From a virus (lineage: Duplodnaviria > Caudoviricetes): a stretch of DNA of 64,000 nt. Below are positions 21,090 through 38,492 of this stretch, piece by piece. Below the pieces are notes generated by a model. The model worked only from the letters and a program-made list of their open reading frames with translations. It was not told the DNA's origin and searched no databases. Where the stretch lies: IMG/VR virus record IMGVR_UViG_3300048861_000178, positions 160,001-224,000 of that record; one strand, given 5' to 3'. The position numbers and the translations under genes are program-made. Every line of letters begins with the position of its first letter. The stretch's first letter is position 1.

Positions 21090-21264
21090 TCGCACCCCTG
21101 AGAGTCGGTGTATAGTTAGCGGACCAAAAATGGATTCATAACTATTTCGGCTCGATTCTTTTACTGGCATTGAAGCGGCATAAAAGGCTAGGGCAACACC
21201 TGGGCTGGTCAGGCCCAAGTGTCACACCTAGCGGTACTACAGGGGAGGTACTACAAGGAAACAG

Positions 21265-23651: not shown

Positions 23652-25856
23652 ATGTCTTCCAAACTGTATCAAATCGGCAACGCTGGCCAGGACGGCACGA
23701 TCAACTCGCTGGTTGCGAAGGTCCAACATGCTGTCAACCGCAGCGGCCCGCACATCGAAAAGCGCCTGGCATCGTCCGTCGTTGCGATGGAATCGCTCGA
23801 CGCAACCACGCAGCTCGAACTCGAAGGCTCGGTGAAGGGTCTGAAGACCTCGCTCGAATCGATCAGCTCGCAATTCGCGGCTGAACTGAACGCGAACGAC
23901 GGCCTGATCAAGGGCAAGCACACCGTCGCGCAAAAGCAAGCAGGTCTGGTCGCGGCAATCGTCGCGGGCGACATGGCTGGCTTCCTGAAGGCACCGGTCG
24001 CACGCAAGGTTTCGCTCGAAGGCCACACGTTCATCCCCGCGATGGGCAACGGCGCGATGGATCACCGTCAGTCGAAGGCGCTCGAAGCCTACGACGAGCG
24101 TGAAACGAAGTCGGCTACCGTGTACTCGGTGGCGTACAACCTGCAAGCTGCACGTCAAGACGAATTCGGCGAAGCGTTCTTCCCGACCGTCGTCGTCACG
24201 CCGGACCAGTACGGCTACACCGTGTCGATTCGCCTCGTGCAAGTGTACGACGAAGTTCGTCGCACCATCGACGGCGCGCTGAGCAAGAACTTCGGCAAGA
24301 AGAACATCATCCAGGCCCTGATCGATCCGACCATCCTGCGCAACGACCTCTCGAAGATCGTCCCGGTCTATCGTCCGGAAAGCGCAGCGAACTTCGTCGC
24401 GACCAGCCTGGTTCCGGCTGCCGACATCGAACACGAAGGCGTGTCGATCAAGACGGCGCCGCTCGCGATCGGCAAGTCGTTCTCGCTGCTCGGCATCTCG
24501 CAAACCGACGCGCTGCTCGAAACCGGCATGCTGGACTCGACCGACGCAATCGACCCGGCGATCAAGCTGAGCTCGCTGTACCTGCAAGTCGGCTCGGGCG
24601 GTTCGGCCGAAGTCATCAAGTTCAAGTCTGTTGCCAACATGCAATCGGGTACGTTCACGTACTCGGTGCAGAACAACTACCGTCTGATGACGCTGAACTT
24701 CATCAGCAACGCGCTCGTGCTGAACGTGAACACGAAGAAGGCCGACGGTTCGGCTTCGACGGTTCTCGCGCCGATCGTGCAAGGCAACTACGAAGTCAAG
24801 CTGTCGGTGCAAGTGTTCGGCAACGTGAACCTCGAACTCGCTGACACGCAACTGTCGGCTGGTCAAGTGTCGATCTACGAAATCCGTGACGAAGACGGCA
24901 ACATCGTCGATCCGACCACGGGCGCAGGCGCAACCATCGCTACGGCGCTGGCTGGCGCATCGATCGTCGGTTACGACCTCGACGCACGTCGCACCAACAC
25001 GAACCGTCGTGAACGCGGTCAGCTGCTCGACCTCACGTTCTACAACATGGTTTACGGCGTGCCGCTGCTGTCGCCGATCACGATTCCGCGTCCGCTGACG
25101 CTGGGCGACCAGAACGACGCAAGCGATCTGGCTGCACTGATCACGGCAACGCACATCCGTACGTCGAATGCTGCAGTGGCGAAGCTGCTGGACGTCGAAA
25201 CGGCGCTGAAGGAACTGGTCACGGCCAACGGTGGTCTGTATCAAGGCGATCCGGAAATCCTCGGCGTGGCGCGTTTCCTGGTGACTCCGTTCTACGAGCA
25301 CCAAGACTACAGCGCACCGGCAGTGGTGGACTCGATCAAGTCGCACGAACGTGCGGCCGACATCCAGGCCTCGCTGATCAACATCCTGCGCGACATGGCT
25401 TACCGCATGTACCGCGACTCGGGCTACAAGGCTGCTGCAGACGCATTGGCTGGCGGCATCGCTGCTACGCCGACCGTCATCATCGGTACGGACCCGGTCA
25501 TCGCGCGTTACCTGCAAGTCACGGGCGACTTCCGTACGCTCGGCAACGACTTCAACGTGAAGATCGTGTCGACGCTGAACATCAACATGCGCGGCAAGAT
25601 CCGCATGTCGTTCGGCGAATTCGGTGAAGGCAAGGAAGGCGTGCCGAACCCGATGCACTTCGGCAACATGGCATGGAAGCCGGAACTGACGCTGATTCTC
25701 CCGCTGCACCGCAACGGCGCAAACAGCAAGGAAATCACGGTCCAGCCGTCGTTCCTGCACGTCGTGAACCTGCCGATCATGGGTTCGATCGACGTGAGCG
25801 GCATCGAAGACGTGGTGACGGCGAAGGTTGCTGTCAACATGCACACGGTGTCGTGA
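23652..25856 (+). CDS. major capsid protein (phiKZ gp120-like)
   Basis: 734 aa; propeptide ending ALE|AYDE; YNL.AARQDEFGEAFFPTVV, NTNRRERGQLLD; extreme high-expression codon bias. Confidence 0.95.
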   Translation: MSSKLYQIGNAGQDGTINSLVAKVQHAVNRSGPHIEKRLASSVVAMESLDATTQLELEGSVKGLKTSLESISSQFAAELNANDGLIKGKHTVAQKQAGLVAAIVAGDMAGFLKAPVARKVSLEGHTFIPAMGNGAMDHRQSKALEAYDERETKSATVYSVAYNLQAARQDEFGEAFFPTVVVTPDQYGYTVSIRLVQVYDEVRRTIDGALSKNFGKKNIIQALIDPTILRNDLSKIVPVYRPESAANFVATSLVPAADIEHEGVSIKTAPLAIGKSFSLLGISQTDALLETGMLDSTDAIDPAIKLSSLYLQVGSGGSAEVIKFKSVANMQSGTFTYSVQNNYRLMTLNFISNALVLNVNTKKADGSASTVLAPIVQGNYEVKLSVQVFGNVNLELADTQLSAGQVSIYEIRDEDGNIVDPTTGAGATIATALAGASIVGYDLDARRTNTNRRERGQLLDLTFYNMVYGVPLLSPITIPRPLTLGDQNDASDLAALITATHIRTSNAAVAKLLDVETALKELVTANGGLYQGDPEILGVARFLVTPFYEHQDYSAPAVVDSIKSHERAADIQASLINILRDMAYRMYRDSGYKAAADALAGGIAATPTVIIGTDPVIARYLQVTGDFRTLGNDFNVKIVSTLNINMRGKIRMSFGEFGEGKEGVPNPMHFGNMAWKPELTLILPLHRNGANSKEITVQPSFLHVVNLPIMGSIDVSGIEDVVTAKVAVNMHTVS

Positions 25857-31425: not shown

Positions 31426-31468
31426 CGGCATAGCGCCTGGGGAGTGATCCCCAGGCCTTTCTTTTTTG
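31426..31468 (+). terminator. Rho-independent terminator
   Basis: CGGCATA..GCCTGGGGA-GTGA-TCCCCAGGC followed by a T-rich tract. Confidence 0.8.
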
Positions 31469-31626
31469 TTCATCGACAGCAGGCCAAACGGACCCCCTGA
31501 CCATGATTGCGCAGCGTAACGTGTTTCTTAACGCGGGTGGTGACGGGGCCTAAGGCTCATCCATAACGAGACAAGGATTTTTTTCCTTGTCTCGGTTTAT
31601 GCCCTAACGATAACCAGGAGAGTGTT

Positions 31627-32007
31627 GTGACGGTAGAAAGTAATCGTCCGTTTGCGGACTTAATCACGCAGTACGTGGTGTTTCGTCAGGCACTCACGGG
31701 TTGCAAAGTGAAAAACTCGCTCACGAAAGTTCTCGTGACCCATAAGGACGATGCGGAAACGGGCGAGCACCATACCGAGCTGCTCATGGCTGAGCTCGTC
31801 GGGCAAGAGCCGCTGGATCTGAAAGGCTACCTCAGCGTAATGGAGCGCGAAGGTTTGCGCATGGCGCGGGTGAAGGTGATGCGTCATGTCGTCGGGGCCC
31901 GCAATGACGACATCGAAGTAGCGGAGCTGTGGGTGAATGCGGAGAACATTTCCGACTACCTGATTCGTTTTTACCTCTATTTAGCAACCGACTTCTGGGA
32001 GAGTTAA
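31627..32007 (+). CDS. hypothetical phage protein
   Basis: AGGAG SD before GTG. Confidence 0.75.
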   Translation: MTVESNRPFADLITQYVVFRQALTGCKVKNSLTKVLVTHKDDAETGEHHTELLMAELVGQEPLDLKGYLSVMEREGLRMARVKVMRHVVGARNDDIEVAELWVNAENISDYLIRFYLYLATDFWES

Positions 32008-32008
32008 C

Positions 32009-32401
32009 ATGGCACAGCTGAACATGGACTTGGTGGGGCCGCTCGATGTGGGTGAGGATGCGATGAGTATCGTCATCACCGGCGGCACAGAGCGCGCCCG
32101 CTGGGTCGCCAAAGAGGTGGTCTTTGGGGCCTTGGAAGGCGCAGGCTTTCAGCACGTCGATTACATTCCGGATCACAAGGAGCAGATGCCGTCCGAGAAT
32201 GTGACCACGCTTTTGGAAGAGTGTCAGATACTCAATCCCGAAATCTTTACCACCGCAATTACCGTGGAAACTGCCCGGCAAGCGTTTGAACCGGACATTC
32301 CCAACGAGGCGGCCTGGAACCGGATCACCAATCCGAGTCCGCCCGATGGACCCATCAAAGCCATCGAGATTCAGGGTGGTGTGACCACCATTCGTTTTTA
32401 G
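32009..32401 (+). CDS. small paralog-family protein (GF..V / LL..(M/C)..(L/A)NP.(L/I)F), copy 1
   Basis: SIVITGG...AGFQHV...TLLEECQILNPEIF. Confidence 0.8.
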   Translation: MAQLNMDLVGPLDVGEDAMSIVITGGTERARWVAKEVVFGALEGAGFQHVDYIPDHKEQMPSENVTTLLEECQILNPEIFTTAITVETARQAFEPDIPNEAAWNRITNPSPPDGPIKAIEIQGGVTTIRF

Positions 32402-32439: not shown

Positions 32440-33600
32440 ATGAAAATCCTACCGTTGCACACCCCCTTTAACCGTTACCACTTTGTCGACGATCAGTACA
32501 ATCTCGGCGAAGCAGAAGCGCTCACCGCGCACGTCTCGGTCTATACGTCGGCGATGCGCTTTAACATGAACATTCCCTTCACCGACCTGGCACGCAGTGA
32601 GGAACTCGTCGCGCAGGAAGTGATTCGCCCGAGCTGGGGGGTTGATCCGACGAACCCGCGTTTGTACGGCGTGGTGTTCAAGCTGCCCGATTGCGAGAAG
32701 GCGGTGACTTCGGCCATCGGGCTGAATGTGGCAGATGCCCGGTTCGTCCCCGCTTCGCAAACCGACTTCTGTCAACTGGCGATCGAAAACAAGCGCATTC
32801 CGTTTGTGATTGGTCTGAAGGAACTGGCGACCTGGACCACGGTCGAATCGCGCCCGCCAATGCTGCAGCGCATGATGGCTGAAGAGATGTATGTGCGATT
32901 GGAGATGGAGCTCTCAGGGACGCTCAATATCAAGAGCGGCAACCTGCGCGTCATCCAGCTCACGCCCGTGCATGTGTCGGCGGTGCTCGACCGTAAAGGC
33001 CGCCTGCTTGATCTGGAAGCGGACGAATTCGTCACCTCACTGGTGGCGTATTTCACGCAAGCCGAGCCGATCGGTTTCTGGATGGATGCAGACTGGCTCG
33101 AGTTGCAGCCGCAAGTGTCCTACCAGTTCGAAATGGAGGATGCGTGCTCAGCCGGTCGTGGGCTGGCGCTGCTGGTCAAGGGCGTCGTCGGTGCCTACGA
33201 CTGTACTGGCTATGCTGCGGACGTCTGCGAGCCCACTGAGAGCGCCTACGGCACTACCACGGTGTATCTGGACCCGATGGAGGGCAAGCCCAAGTGGAAA
33301 GTGGTGATCGAGGAGGGGTTCGATCTCCAACCCGGCTGGGTCAATGTGGAATTCTTCGGGCAAGCGGGGGAGCTCCTTAAGCTCAGTAGCATCGCGCGCT
33401 TTGAAAAGATCCCACAGGTGTACGTGGGACAGTGGGCAGGTGCCATCGGCATGTTCTTAGTCGATGGGGACTCACATCGTGTGAATCTCACCCTGCCCGC
33501 GATTGTGCCTGACCACACCACGTGGGCTGAGATCGAAAAGAACCCCGAGGCATTCTCCATCGAACTGCACCGGGCTCGTAAGTTCCAGACCACGGAGTAA
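32440..33600 (+). CDS. protein with an N-terminal domain homologous to an internal capsid-protein domain
   Basis: residues ~35-217 align by eye with capsid residues ~267-445. Confidence 0.7.
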   Translation: MKILPLHTPFNRYHFVDDQYNLGEAEALTAHVSVYTSAMRFNMNIPFTDLARSEELVAQEVIRPSWGVDPTNPRLYGVVFKLPDCEKAVTSAIGLNVADARFVPASQTDFCQLAIENKRIPFVIGLKELATWTTVESRPPMLQRMMAEEMYVRLEMELSGTLNIKSGNLRVIQLTPVHVSAVLDRKGRLLDLEADEFVTSLVAYFTQAEPIGFWMDADWLELQPQVSYQFEMEDACSAGRGLALLVKGVVGAYDCTGYAADVCEPTESAYGTTTVYLDPMEGKPKWKVVIEEGFDLQPGWVNVEFFGQAGELLKLSSIARFEKIPQVYVGQWAGAIGMFLVDGDSHRVNLTLPAIVPDHTTWAEIEKNPEAFSIELHRARKFQTTE

Positions 33601-34011: not shown

Positions 34012-34089
34012 AACTTACGACGACTGAGCATGAGATGGAGGGTGCCTTCGGCCCCTCCGTCTTATGAGCCCTTCAAGGAAAGAATAGGC

Positions 34090-34527
34090 ATGACTCCTGA
34101 CGCAATCAATGTCATCATCGAAGCTCAGGGTGCCCAAACCCGACAGCTGGTGGCAAGTCTGATTCAAGACAAACTCCAGGAATCGGGGTTCACCCATGTC
34201 GACACTGGCATCGCCAGCCGCGACGACGAAACAAGCAAGGTGATCGAACGCTCCGCGCTTCCGAGCCTGCTTGACGAGATGCGTGCACTGAACCCGCGAC
34301 TGTTCGCGCGGCCGGTGAGCATCCTCGCTATGCCCTATAGCGAGAACCCTGTGGAAGCCACCGAGCCCCATCTGAGCACCATGGCGGACCACATCGACGT
34401 AACAGAACTCTCGGGCGACACGTCCGAACTCCAGCCCGGTCAAGGTCGTCTGAAAGACGGCACCATCATTGACCTCGCCACGTTCGTAGCACCAAAAGCA
34501 GTGCTACTCGACGAAGTTCTCGTCTAA
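34090..34527 (+). CDS. small paralog-family protein, copy 2
   Basis: INVIIEA...SGFTHV...SLLDEMRALNPRLF. Confidence 0.8.
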   Translation: MTPDAINVIIEAQGAQTRQLVASLIQDKLQESGFTHVDTGIASRDDETSKVIERSALPSLLDEMRALNPRLFARPVSILAMPYSENPVEATEPHLSTMADHIDVTELSGDTSELQPGQGRLKDGTIIDLATFVAPKAVLLDEVLV

Positions 34528-35368: not shown

Positions 35369-35380
35369 AAGGGAGGAGTG

Positions 35381-35860
35381 ATGGACGCACCTGTGAACAT
35401 CGTGGTGGAATCGCGCGATGGGAAGAGTGCGGAGTTAGTAGGTCGGGCTATTAGCCAGTCACTGAAGGACACGTACGGCTTTAAGCGCGTCACGGTCGGT
35501 CATGTGGTAGCTGATACGCCTGGCTTTCGTGCTTGGCACAGCAGCACCGAGGTGCAGGAAGAGCCTCAGTCGCTGTTGGAAGCCATGCAGGAAGCTAACC
35601 CGCAGTTGTTTGAACAGCCCGTGACCATTATCAGTCGCGAGCAACCTTTGAAGGCGTTTTCCGACCCGGTGGCAGAGGTGTCCGGCTTCGTCGAGGCCAT
35701 GAATGATGAAGGCGTTACTTTCGCAGAAGCCCAAGGGTTGCAAGACGTGACCTTTAAACTGCCAGGTGAACCCGCGAAACCAGCCCAAGCGGACGTCGAA
35801 GGTTTCGTTAAGGCGGCCGAGATGCTGGGTATACGGGTCGAAAAAGTCATTAGCCTGTAG
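35381..35860 (+). CDS. small paralog-family protein, copy 5
   Basis: NIVVES...YGFKRV...SLLEAMQEANPQLF. Confidence 0.8.
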   Translation: MDAPVNIVVESRDGKSAELVGRAISQSLKDTYGFKRVTVGHVVADTPGFRAWHSSTEVQEEPQSLLEAMQEANPQLFEQPVTIISREQPLKAFSDPVAEVSGFVEAMNDEGVTFAEAQGLQDVTFKLPGEPAKPAQADVEGFVKAAEMLGIRVEKVISL

Positions 35861-36461: not shown

Positions 36462-38492
36462 ATGAAGAAAGGAATTCGCATCACCATCGACGGCGCCAGC
36501 AACACTGGTAAGACGCTGCTCGCCTATGCCTTCTCGGAATTCTTGCGCCAGAACGGCGCGGAGGACGAGCAGATCTCGTTCTTCAATGACGGCATGCCGC
36601 CGCGGGAAGAATGTCAGCGCATTCTGGAAAATGCGATCGCCAATGGCGTCTTCAAGGATACCGAATTCGTCTTTGTTGAACGCAACGTGGGACGCTTGCA
36701 TCTGGTCGATGCCGGGATCGAAGGCACGGCCCGCTGGCAAGCGAAGCCAAAGAAGTATTTGCCAATCCACCAGAATGCGGCCCACGTTGACATGGAAATG
36801 GGGGTTGCCTATTCCTCTTCGCGTGACAATGCGCAGCGGGCCCGCCAGGAAGACGACAAACCCGTCGGCACGCTACTGAGCACGCATCTCGACGCCAGTG
36901 CCGTGCGTCGTAAATACGCCAAGCAACACATGCTCGATATGCAGAACAAGTCGAGCGAAGCGCAAGAATACCTGCAGCTCCAGGAAATCAAGCGCCAGAC
37001 CTTGCTGAACGAGATGCTCAAAGAACCGGCACTCGTGCCCATTCTTGGTGAATTCCGGATCAACACCGTTCACCTTATCCCGCCGCTCGCGCAGGAGAGC
37101 TACCTGGGTTACCGCAAGAGGGAGTTCGAGGACAACGATACCCTGCCGCAGTTGGACGTGTTTATTTCGCGCTGGGATCGTCAACCGGTCACGCAGCAGG
37201 ATATGGTGCGCCTCTACACGGCCTTCAAGCCGGGCTTCCCGGAGATCTGCCTCAACCGCAAGCTGCAGAACTCCGGTATCTCGGGCGCGCATGTGTCTGG
37301 CTCGACGCCGTTGTTCAATCTGACAGCCCATAGTGCGCTGGCGCGAGCAGGTCGGGATGCATTGCAAGCCATGACAAGCCAGCAAGCTCGGGCATCTTCT
37401 CCGATCCTGGAAACCCTGGATGATATCACCCGGAACCATTTCGCTGTGCGAGCCACCGATGCGCGTGCTTTCAGGCCTGAAGGAGGCTGGCCTGGAGAGT
37501 TTGGTGGTACTGTCCTGGGTCATCCGCTGGGGCACGATAATGGCGACCACAACGGCGAGCTGGAGTCGGGTTTCAAGTACCAGATGCAGATCCATCCGCT
37601 CACCGGTGAAACGCGTGAACAGATGCTGGTACGTGCTCAGTCATTCATCCGCGGGATGCATATCGGCGGGGGTGAAATGGCATTCGACTATTCGAACCTA
37701 CCGGTTGATCTGACGTTCGATAACCAGTGCGGGGTGCGCTGGAAGACCGAAGCGGAGATGGCCCAGGTGCAAGCCGAAGTGGATGCGGTGTTCGAACAGG
37801 CTCATGACGCGCCTTTGTCGATGAGCAAAGAGTATTACTTCGACGCGTTTGGGGGCCTGCGCGCTTCGTATGAAGCACCGGGCGCTAACGGCGAGTTCGG
37901 CCGCCTTCTCGCTCAGCTACATTCAGCGGGTCATCGCGAACTGATGCAAAAGTTCACCCTTCATAGCCTCGTCAATCTCTCGAACGACGAAGCCCAACAA
38001 CAGAAGTGGAACCACAAGCGGAGGAACTTCATCATTCGTGGAACGAATAGGCAGTTCCATGAAGTAAAGTTCCTGGCGGAGTTCAAACCGGCAGATGGCG
38101 TAACGAATGTTACGCCTTACATCGGCCAGTTGATCGAAGCCATGCATCAGTGTCGCCCGGAAGTGCTGGCTTACGTTACGTATCCGACAGGTCGGTGGCT
38201 GGAGCAGGACCGTAAGATCGTCAACCAGAGTGAGCTGGATCAGTATCCGGGGATTGATGGAATCGACTCGACGGCTGAGTTCGCATCGGAAGAAGAGCAA
38301 CGCAGAATGACCGAAGGAAGAAGTCCAATCTTCAGCAGACTGCCGCGCGGTATGAACCGTTCCATCACCCACATCGACGACGCAGGACTGTGGCCGGGCG
38401 GTGTTGCGCCGGTAGCCTCGCCTGCTGATCCGGTGTTGAAAGAACAGATGGACACGGTGGCTGCGAACCTGCTCAAGGTCCGTGACCAGTAA
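36462..38492 (+). CDS. multidomain protein with an N-terminal P-loop
   Basis: IRITIDGASNTGKT Walker A at the N-terminus; AGGAG SD. Confidence 0.75.
   Translation: MKKGIRITIDGASNTGKTLLAYAFSEFLRQNGAEDEQISFFNDGMPPREECQRILENAIANGVFKDTEFVFVERNVGRLHLVDAGIEGTARWQAKPKKYLPIHQNAAHVDMEMGVAYSSSRDNAQRARQEDDKPVGTLLSTHLDASAVRRKYAKQHMLDMQNKSSEAQEYLQLQEIKRQTLLNEMLKEPALVPILGEFRINTVHLIPPLAQESYLGYRKREFEDNDTLPQLDVFISRWDRQPVTQQDMVRLYTAFKPGFPEICLNRKLQNSGISGAHVSGSTPLFNLTAHSALARAGRDALQAMTSQQARASSPILETLDDITRNHFAVRATDARAFRPEGGWPGEFGGTVLGHPLGHDNGDHNGELESGFKYQMQIHPLTGETREQMLVRAQSFIRGMHIGGGEMAFDYSNLPVDLTFDNQCGVRWKTEAEMAQVQAEVDAVFEQAHDAPLSMSKEYYFDAFGGLRASYEAPGANGEFGRLLAQLHSAGHRELMQKFTLHSLVNLSNDEAQQQKWNHKRRNFIIRGTNRQFHEVKFLAEFKPADGVTNVTPYIGQLIEAMHQCRPEVLAYVTYPTGRWLEQDRKIVNQSELDQYPGIDGIDSTAEFASEEEQRRMTEGRSPIFSRLPRGMNRSITHIDDAGLWPGGVAPVASPADPVLKEQMDTVAANLLKVRDQ

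Follow-up and report, generated by a model that had tools for sequence, protein, structure and literature searches.

The window analysed here is a stretch of 64,000 nucleotides of DNA, bases 160001–224000 of the 315,190-bp IMG/VR virus record IMGVR_UViG_3300048861_000178 (98% complete), from a jumbo, nucleus-forming soil phage. Among cultured phages, its sole close relative is Burkholderia phage FLC9. The gene under study codes for the two-domain protein P0001 (386 amino acids, aa; 32440–33600, + strand) and is an open reading frame (ORF) with its own start and stop codons; a purine-rich stretch lies directly upstream of it, and the start MK(I/V/A)(L/V)P is found in 8 of 8 members of the P0001 family. 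It is situated 6.6 kb downstream of the gene of the resident full-length PhiKZ-type major capsid protein (MCP; P0002, 734 aa; 23652–25856, likewise + strand), which covers the Pfam profile PF25620 'PhiKZ_MCP' end to end (E 5.9e-197; phrog_3231, E 6.8e-193). P0001 consists of an N-terminal domain (residues 2–224; 32443–33111, + strand) and a C-terminal domain (residues 225–386; 33112–33597, + strand). Residues 2–224 form a free-standing, diverged paralogue of the PhiKZ-type MCP insertion (I) domain, the part which in the resident MCP comprises residues 235–450 and is encoded at 24354–25001 (+ strand; HHalign coordinates). A first-pass annotation, made from the sequence alone, had recognised in the gene a diverged, free-standing copy of a domain internal to the capsid protein and had located the counterpart at 24450–24986, which the limits given above enclose; the domain concerned can now be named exactly as the PhiKZ-type MCP I domain.

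Pairwise BLASTP of P0001 with the resident MCP (E 0.077, 18% identity, 224 columns) was not significant alone, the identity of the two proteins being about 14–18%, but the profile and fold comparisons that follow leave no doubt about the similarity. In the Pfam search, residues 9–217 were matched to positions 155–360 of the 635 of PF25620 (E 3.6e-14; 52.3 bits, curated cut-off 27 bits), and P0001 was also matched to PHROG 3231 'major head protein' (E 6.7e-10). HHalign of a profile of 8 P0001 family members with a profile of 15 mature MCPs gave a probability of 99.2% (E 7.3e-20, 212 columns), P0001 2–222 being aligned with MCP 235–450; all five motif pairs quoted in the first-pass annotation were found aligned, and the similarity starts earlier than had been proposed, at residue 2 (KILPLH in P0001, KIVPVY in the MCP). 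The family profile found PhiKZ gp120 262–469 in the PDB sequence set (E 4.6e-7). The structure of P0001 is a prediction, obtained with AlphaFold2 (mean predicted local distance difference test score, pLDDT, 64.5; 75–90 across residues 70–220; low over 1–60); a Foldseek search with it returned as sole matches the MCPs of the jumbo phages PhiKp24 (E 1e-11) and PhiKZ (E 1.6e-11). Superposition of model residues 3–224 on residues 248–467 of PhiKZ gp120 (8y6v_a) gave Z 16.2 with a root-mean-square deviation of 3.7 Å over 206 residues, and comparison with the PhiKp24 MCP gave Z 14.9 (Z scores of the VIA structure comparison). Except for PhiKZ-type and PhiKp24-type capsid proteins, no PDB match above noise was obtained for the fold of the I-like domain. 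HHalign and structural superposition had been named in the first-pass annotation as checks on the colinear similarity to the capsid protein, and both bore it out.

The I domain of PhiKZ gp120 has been assigned to residues 248–472 (PMC11297242), and the I-domain arrangement of the Goslar capsid protein is the same as that of PhiKZ (PMC13742148). Since the limits of the matches agree with the published 248–472, the N-terminal half of P0001 is a copy of exactly the I domain; relative to the I domains of PhiKZ gp120 (PDB 8y6v) and Goslar gp41 it is homologous in sequence and in fold and has the same boundaries. The context differs: in the MCP, the I domain is an E-loop insertion in an HK97-fold protein, joined by two linker strands, whereas P0001, a separate protein, has it at the N-terminus, with an unrelated domain following. 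The HK97 core (N-arm, P domain, A domain, C-terminal arm) is absent from P0001, the alignments ending at the I-domain limits, and so is the N-terminal propeptide, the first residues of all eight family members belonging already to the I domain; the first-pass annotation was right on both absences. In gp120 the propeptide comprises about 160 aa and the prohead-protease cleavage is at Glu163 (PMC11297242). The same boundaries, from 'IVP' to 'GYDLD..R.N', are shared by all the free-standing copies described below, so that a whole folding and interaction module has been kept and not a random fragment. P0001 was also considered as a penton or vertex paralogue of the MCP; this was rejected, since P0001 has no HK97 core and the pentons of PhiKZ are gp120, as follows from the 27 gp120 chains in the PhiKZ asymmetric unit.

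The C-terminal domain, modelled alone (residues 225–386; AlphaFold2, pLDDT 80.9, predicted template modelling score 0.77), is predicted to be a family-specific alpha/beta domain consisting of a helix, five strands and further helices. HHalign of residues 220–386 with the MCP gave a probability of 0.2%, i.e., no similarity, in agreement with the first-pass description of an unrelated C-terminal region of about 170 aa. No match to the domain was found in Pfam or in PHROG, and among 1.84 billion representative proteins, in which the P0001 family amounts to 3 clusters at 50% identity, it was absent outside this family. A structure search of the PDB gave Z 7.4 at best (Med17 C-terminal domain, CapZ, PsiB and frataxin-like sandwiches), which is in the uninformative range; a second comparison, with CapZ alpha, gave Z 8.0–8.1 over about 105 residues. 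The recurrent CapZ and Med17 matches concern sheet-plus-helix modules that form dimers in those proteins, and are a lead in that direction rather than a classification. In BFVD nothing was found at E ≤ 1e-3, two structure-atlas searches gave low scores only (template modelling score below 0.5), and HHalign indicated no link between this domain and the 134-aa protein encoded downstream.

The gene for P0001 is a real gene under purifying selection: against four IMG/VR relatives (94–96% identity) its ratio of nonsynonymous to synonymous substitution rates (dN/dS) was 0.06–0.08 (I-like domain, 0.08–0.09; C-terminal domain, 0.03–0.10), with 0.10 for the MCP gene and 0.02–0.24 for the neighbouring genes in the matching comparison. 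The order of genes is MCP, a 429-aa protein, an RNA-polymerase-like protein of 566 aa (phrog_2943), a 690-aa protein, small ORF(s), P0001 and the 134-aa protein. This order recurs in FLC9 (gp92 to gp86) and in a 326-kb metagenomic contig, the block from MCP to P0001 being collinear in both, and the position of the P0001 gene is kept in both and in the four IMG/VR relatives; with this synteny, the term 'accessory island', under which the first-pass annotation had placed the gene, is not apt. The orthologue in the equivalent position of FLC9, gp87, is 35% identical to P0001, and the copy on the 326-kb contig 36%; across the block the identities to FLC9 are 88% (MCP), 93% (polymerase subunit) and 45–77% (most others), which puts P0001 among the fastest-diverging genes of its block at longer distances. 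Judged by evolution rate, as an anti-defence gene would be, P0001 gives a low dN/dS among close relatives, yet an identity to FLC9 far below that of the MCP.

A GC hairpin (31435–31456) with a T tract, terminator-like and found by pattern match only, is located 3' of the 690-aa gene (31435–31466, + strand) and is the probable end of the preceding transcription unit. A second hairpin, followed by the motif TTTATGCC (31568–31603, + strand; pattern match, recurrent motif), suggests that the transcription unit which includes the P0001 gene starts near this position, about 0.8 kb upstream. The motif TTTATGCC occurs in 7 copies in the window (1.03 expected), at 21177(-), 26079, 26241, 26701, 31596, 38563(-) and 54595(-). 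Genome-wide, the majority of T[TA]TATGC copies are intergenic and directly 3' of a GC-rich hairpin; in two cases the ATG doubles as the start codon of the next gene. TATG is present in the late promoters of PhiKZ. Judged from such sequence patterns, the motif is probably a phage-polymerase promoter or a terminator–promoter junction.

Among the neighbouring genes, a 126-aa ORF (31627–32007) heads the presumed transcription unit and shows a dN/dS of 0.24, which no other gene of the block exceeds; no FLC9 counterpart of it was found by tblastn. The small ORFs on either side of the P0001 gene, at 32009–32401 and 34030–34527 (with neighbours to 35860) are diverged paralogues of each other (BLASTP E 1e-7) with the pattern GF.HVD ... 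LNP..F in common, and the genes for P0001 and the 134-aa protein are embedded in this array of small paralogues, here as well as in FLC9 and in the 326-kb contig. In comparison with the relative L023, two ORFs are local divergence hot spots: a 160-aa ORF (35378–35860; 49% identity) and a 676-aa ORF (36462–38492; 70% identity, dN/dS 0.40), the latter with a weak match to the divergent family B DNA polymerase profile PF20286 (E 1e-3); elsewhere the block is 92–99% identical to L023 (one small ORF, 86%).

P0001 is not the only free-standing I domain of this phage. A scan of the whole genome with PF25620 gave 4 matches, the MCP, P0001, P0069 (252 aa; genome 149121–149879; E 5e-14) and P0070 (251 aa; 149928–150683; E 3e-18). 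The last two are encoded in tandem about 10 kb before the window, comprise only the I domain and a short tail, and have their first 14 residues identical; directly 3' of the pair there is a gene for a cyclophilin-type prolyl isomerase (PF00160, E 2e-43), the whole block occupying G000:C1 149121–151485 (locus L019:8122–10486). The same pairing is found in FLC9, where gp132 (I domain only) is followed by gp131 (cyclophilin, E 2.5e-44). Two genes from this FLC9 pair, gp134 (L036:7288–7836) codes for a circularly permuted YpsA protein of the SLOG family (PF12694, E 1e-12).

Besides full-length MCPs, an exhaustive profile search returned three 50%-identity clusters of the 376–391-aa type and six unrelated proteins of 202–221 aa (P0035, P0049, P0055, P0058, P0062 and P0067), each with a Met start and an end at the I-domain C-terminus. 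In a further metagenomic protein, P0016 (412 aa; L037:188–1426), an unrelated N-terminal region of 175 aa is joined to the I domain. P0016, P0055, P0058 and P0067, the four that were checked, are complete genes with unrelated flanking genes, one of them on a 236-kb contig; the metagenomic proteins of 200–220 aa were therefore rejected as exons of a split MCP gene.

Faint yet identifiable stand-alone copies in cultured chimalliviruses were found by a BFVD fold search and with a hidden Markov model (HMM) built from the free copies. In 201phi2-1, gp106 (188 aa; L017:5728–6294; PF25620 E 3e-5, just under the cut-off) is encoded between the nuclear-shell protein (chimallin) gp105 and the RNA polymerase gp107, and gp282 (406 aa; L018:2491–3711) has an I-like part at residues 235–372; Phabio gp274 (315 aa; L034:5665–6612) and RP12 gp207 (L035:5313–6002) were matched by the free-copy HMM with E 2e-24 and 1e-12, respectively. 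A thymidylate kinase gene lies a few genes from each of gp282, gp274 and gp207, which suggests an orthologous group. In PhiKZ and PhiPA3 only the MCP was found at the sensitivity of PF25620 and the free-copy HMM; the distribution among related phages, which the first-pass annotation had proposed to examine, is therefore uneven, with free copies in FLC9, 201phi2-1, Phabio and RP12 and none in the other two. Tblastn of P0001, P0069, P0055 and 201phi2-1 gp106 against INPHARED recovered recognisable copies in FLC9 alone, so that for the other cultured phages the HMM or the fold search was needed. In the 201phi2-1 record neither gp106 nor gp282 carries the mark 'identified using mass spectrometry', which neighbouring virion proteins do have; this favours an intracellular over a virion role for the wider family. 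In all, phages have 0 to 3 free copies in three architectures (I domain only; N-terminal extension plus I domain; I domain plus C-terminal domain), and every free copy was found in a phage that also has a PhiKZ-type or PhiKp24-type MCP.

A tree of 73 I domains was computed by a quick IQ-TREE run (LG+G4; the near-identical P0003 and P0004 omitted); its deeper nodes are poorly supported, and long-branch effects probably play a part. The six P0001-family members are united with full support, and their stem is long (0.95); this clade groups loosely with most other free copies and is distant from the resident MCP, whose I domain is sister to that of the FLC9 MCP. The label 'free' needs two changes on this tree, and the free copies may have a single origin. 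The I domain of P0016 nests among those of MCPs, which hints at a separate, younger capture. As to P0001, we conclude only that it did not arise by recent duplication of the resident MCP's I domain. Several motifs strongly kept in MCP I domains and in I-only paralogues have been lost from it (SLLGISQT replaced by PFTDLARS; DSTDAIDP by RPSWGVDP), and it is the least MCP-like of the three free copies of its genome.

Some known systems have features in common with this family. T4 gp24, the vertex protein, is a paralogue of gp23; like P0001, it is the product of a second gene derived from a major capsid protein gene and kept in one genome, but gp24 is a complete HK97-fold shell subunit, whereas P0001 is an insertion domain without the shell-forming parts. 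Lambda gpD and T4 Soc belong to the capsid decoration or cement proteins, which are small, separate from the coat protein and attached to the outer face of HK97-type lattices. In PhiKZ, gp35 and gp244 are decoration proteins on the outer capsid surface; I:I dimers link neighbouring capsomers at the two-folds, the I domains being thought to replace the stabilising action of decoration proteins, and near the three-folds minor capsid proteins do the work of the covalent links of HK97 (PMC11297242). None of these decoration proteins (gp35, gp244, gpD, Soc) has a sequence or fold relation to P0001, and the distant family members of 201phi2-1, unlike decoration proteins, are not marked as virion components; no virion proteome of FLC9 was found in the literature, and PMC11898562 (on the unrelated phage S13) does not contain one. 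Within its own family P0001 stands apart by the added C-terminal domain, the other stand-alone I-like proteins having mostly the I domain alone (190–250 aa) or an N-terminal extension.

The reading that we prefer, tentatively and with rather less than even confidence, is that P0001 is an accessory factor which binds the MCP or the capsid by reuse of the I-domain contacts. The I domain of PhiKZ makes two kinds of contact: I:I dimers are formed at the quasi-two-folds, and the domain is seated on the A/P-domain junction of a neighbour (PMC11297242). Since the free copies keep the whole module with its two known binding activities, the simplest reading is that capsid protein is still what they bind. 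P0001 would bind unassembled MCP, capsomers or the capsid surface through these lattice contacts, i.e., by symmetric I:I pairing across two-fold axes and by the seat on a neighbouring A/P-domain junction, while the C-terminal domain would add a further activity, such as self-association or a link to some other partner. In this way capsid protein could be capped, chaperoned, cross-linked or tethered in the course of head assembly or capsid handling, and the action of P0001 would more likely be transient than that of a stoichiometric shell component. Possible roles are the capping of I-domain surfaces on unassembled MCP, the chaperoning of the assembly of a shell of 1,620 subunits, and the tethering of capsids on their itinerary from cytoplasm to nucleus; the capsids of chimalliviruses are assembled in the cytoplasm, outside the protective nucleus, and follow this itinerary (PMC10643120). 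The cyclophilin encoded beside the I-only copies is a protein-folding enzyme and fits a theme of folding and assembly. Of the functions offered by the first-pass annotation, the 'assembly modulator' overlaps with this reading; for the decoy of capsid sensors no direct support was obtained.

Several observations weigh against an accessory factor of this kind. In the finished T=27 lattice every I-domain seat would be filled by the MCP itself, as may be deduced from PMC11297242, and a place for one more I domain is hard to see. The I-like domain of P0001 is without several MCP-typical motifs and is separated from the resident MCP by a long branch, and 35% identity to the FLC9 orthologue, as compared with 88% for the MCP, is more divergence than would be expected of a partner to a slowly changing surface. 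The function would also not be universal, given that no copy was found in PhiKZ and PhiPA3 at the sensitivity of the searches. A complex prediction for the mature MCP (595 aa) with P0001, run without controls, gave a score of 0.00 (mark, 0.32), which speaks neither for nor against the reading. A comparison with the PhiKZ I:I salt bridge was dropped: Arg296 is Ser in the phage's own MCP and Asn in P0001 (alignment by eye), and the residue, not being conserved even among MCPs, makes such a comparison uninformative.

The same divergence would suit an exapted fold, in which the beta-rich module of the I domain now serves generally as a scaffold for binding some host or phage target, with a non-structural function unrelated to the capsid. 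Besides the long P0001 branch, the lost MCP-typical motifs and the low identity of the FLC9 orthologue, the occurrence of the family in three architectures and in non-structural neighbourhoods (chimallin and RNA polymerase, thymidylate kinase, the small-paralogue array) speaks for it, as does the missing mass-spectrometry mark on 201phi2-1 gp106 and gp282. However, the fold is otherwise confined to PhiKZ-type and PhiKp24-type capsid proteins, and the constant presence of such an MCP in phages with free copies speaks for a role linked to the capsid; the MCP motifs are, moreover, well retained in the I-only paralogues. We regard this exaptation as rather unlikely, though as the main rival of the preferred reading. 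Diversification of the copies, and their restriction to particular lineages, could also be explained if a diverged I domain capped or mis-paired the MCP of a rival jumbo phage and so poisoned its head assembly. Interference competition between co-infecting chimalliviruses is documented, by a different mechanism (PMC11620839); such a weapon against co-infecting relatives would be pure inference here, and conserved synteny and strong purifying selection suit a housekeeping role better, so that we consider it highly improbable.

The decoy suggested in the first-pass annotation would be an immune antagonist: a free I-like domain would occupy a host sensor of the exposed capsid I domain, either by soaking it up or by binding it without activation. 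CapRel is a bacterial sensor that binds the major capsid protein. DSAD1, a phage anti-defence protein against DSR2, occupies the trigger-binding site of the sensor; this mode of action is what a decoy would require, but DSAD1 itself is not a copy of the trigger. Other MCP-binding bacterial sensors are Avs7 and Dsr1 (bioRxiv 10.64898/2026.01.04.697583), and chimallivirus capsids are assembled in the cytoplasm, outside the protective nucleus (PMC10643120); the fast divergence of P0001 over long distances relative to the MCP and the variation of copy number between phages point in the same direction. On the other hand, the literature search gave neither a sensor of the PhiKZ-type I domain nor a capsid-domain decoy. 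The gene is unlike a typical anti-defence gene because its synteny is conserved where a variable island would be expected, because its dN/dS of 0.06–0.08, similar to the 0.10 of the MCP, gives no gene-level sign of positive selection, and because a sensor that binds its trigger directly should be switched on, not silenced, by a faithful mimic. A mimic, furthermore, needs close resemblance, and P0001 resembles the MCP less than the other copies do. That chimalliviruses keep stand-alone mimics of the exposed capsid I domain as antagonists or decoys for sensors of cytoplasmic capsids is accordingly judged improbable. Less exotic than a decoy is the possibility that the free I-domain genes are living relatives of a protein that was captured as the insertion domain of the MCP.

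Stand-alone I-domain proteins are already tagged with PF25620 in databases; a literature search, of incomplete coverage, revealed no paper on free-standing I-domain genes, their role, or capsid-domain decoys. The novelty lies in a capsid-derived paralogue that represents just the insertion domain, coupled to a new partner domain. If the decoy were true after all, a phage would for the first time have been seen to turn a duplicate of its own capsid domain against immunity, a new anti-defence principle. The interest of the finding is mainly in capsid evolution and in the assembly of jumbo phages. Insertion domains of HK97-fold capsid proteins are commonly regarded as belonging to the coat protein, whereas the PhiKZ-type I domain is an independent evolutionary module with a gene family of its own, which numbers as many as three free copies in a genome, occurs in three architectures and diverged from the MCP copies long ago. 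FLC9 is cultured and has both types of copy (gp87 and gp132), so that the predictions made here are directly testable. The family thereby offers a handle on the origin of capsid insertion domains, i.e., capture of a free protein versus excision, and on the chaperoning and handling of T=27 jumbo capsids, which reach the phage nucleus only after their construction in the cytoplasm.

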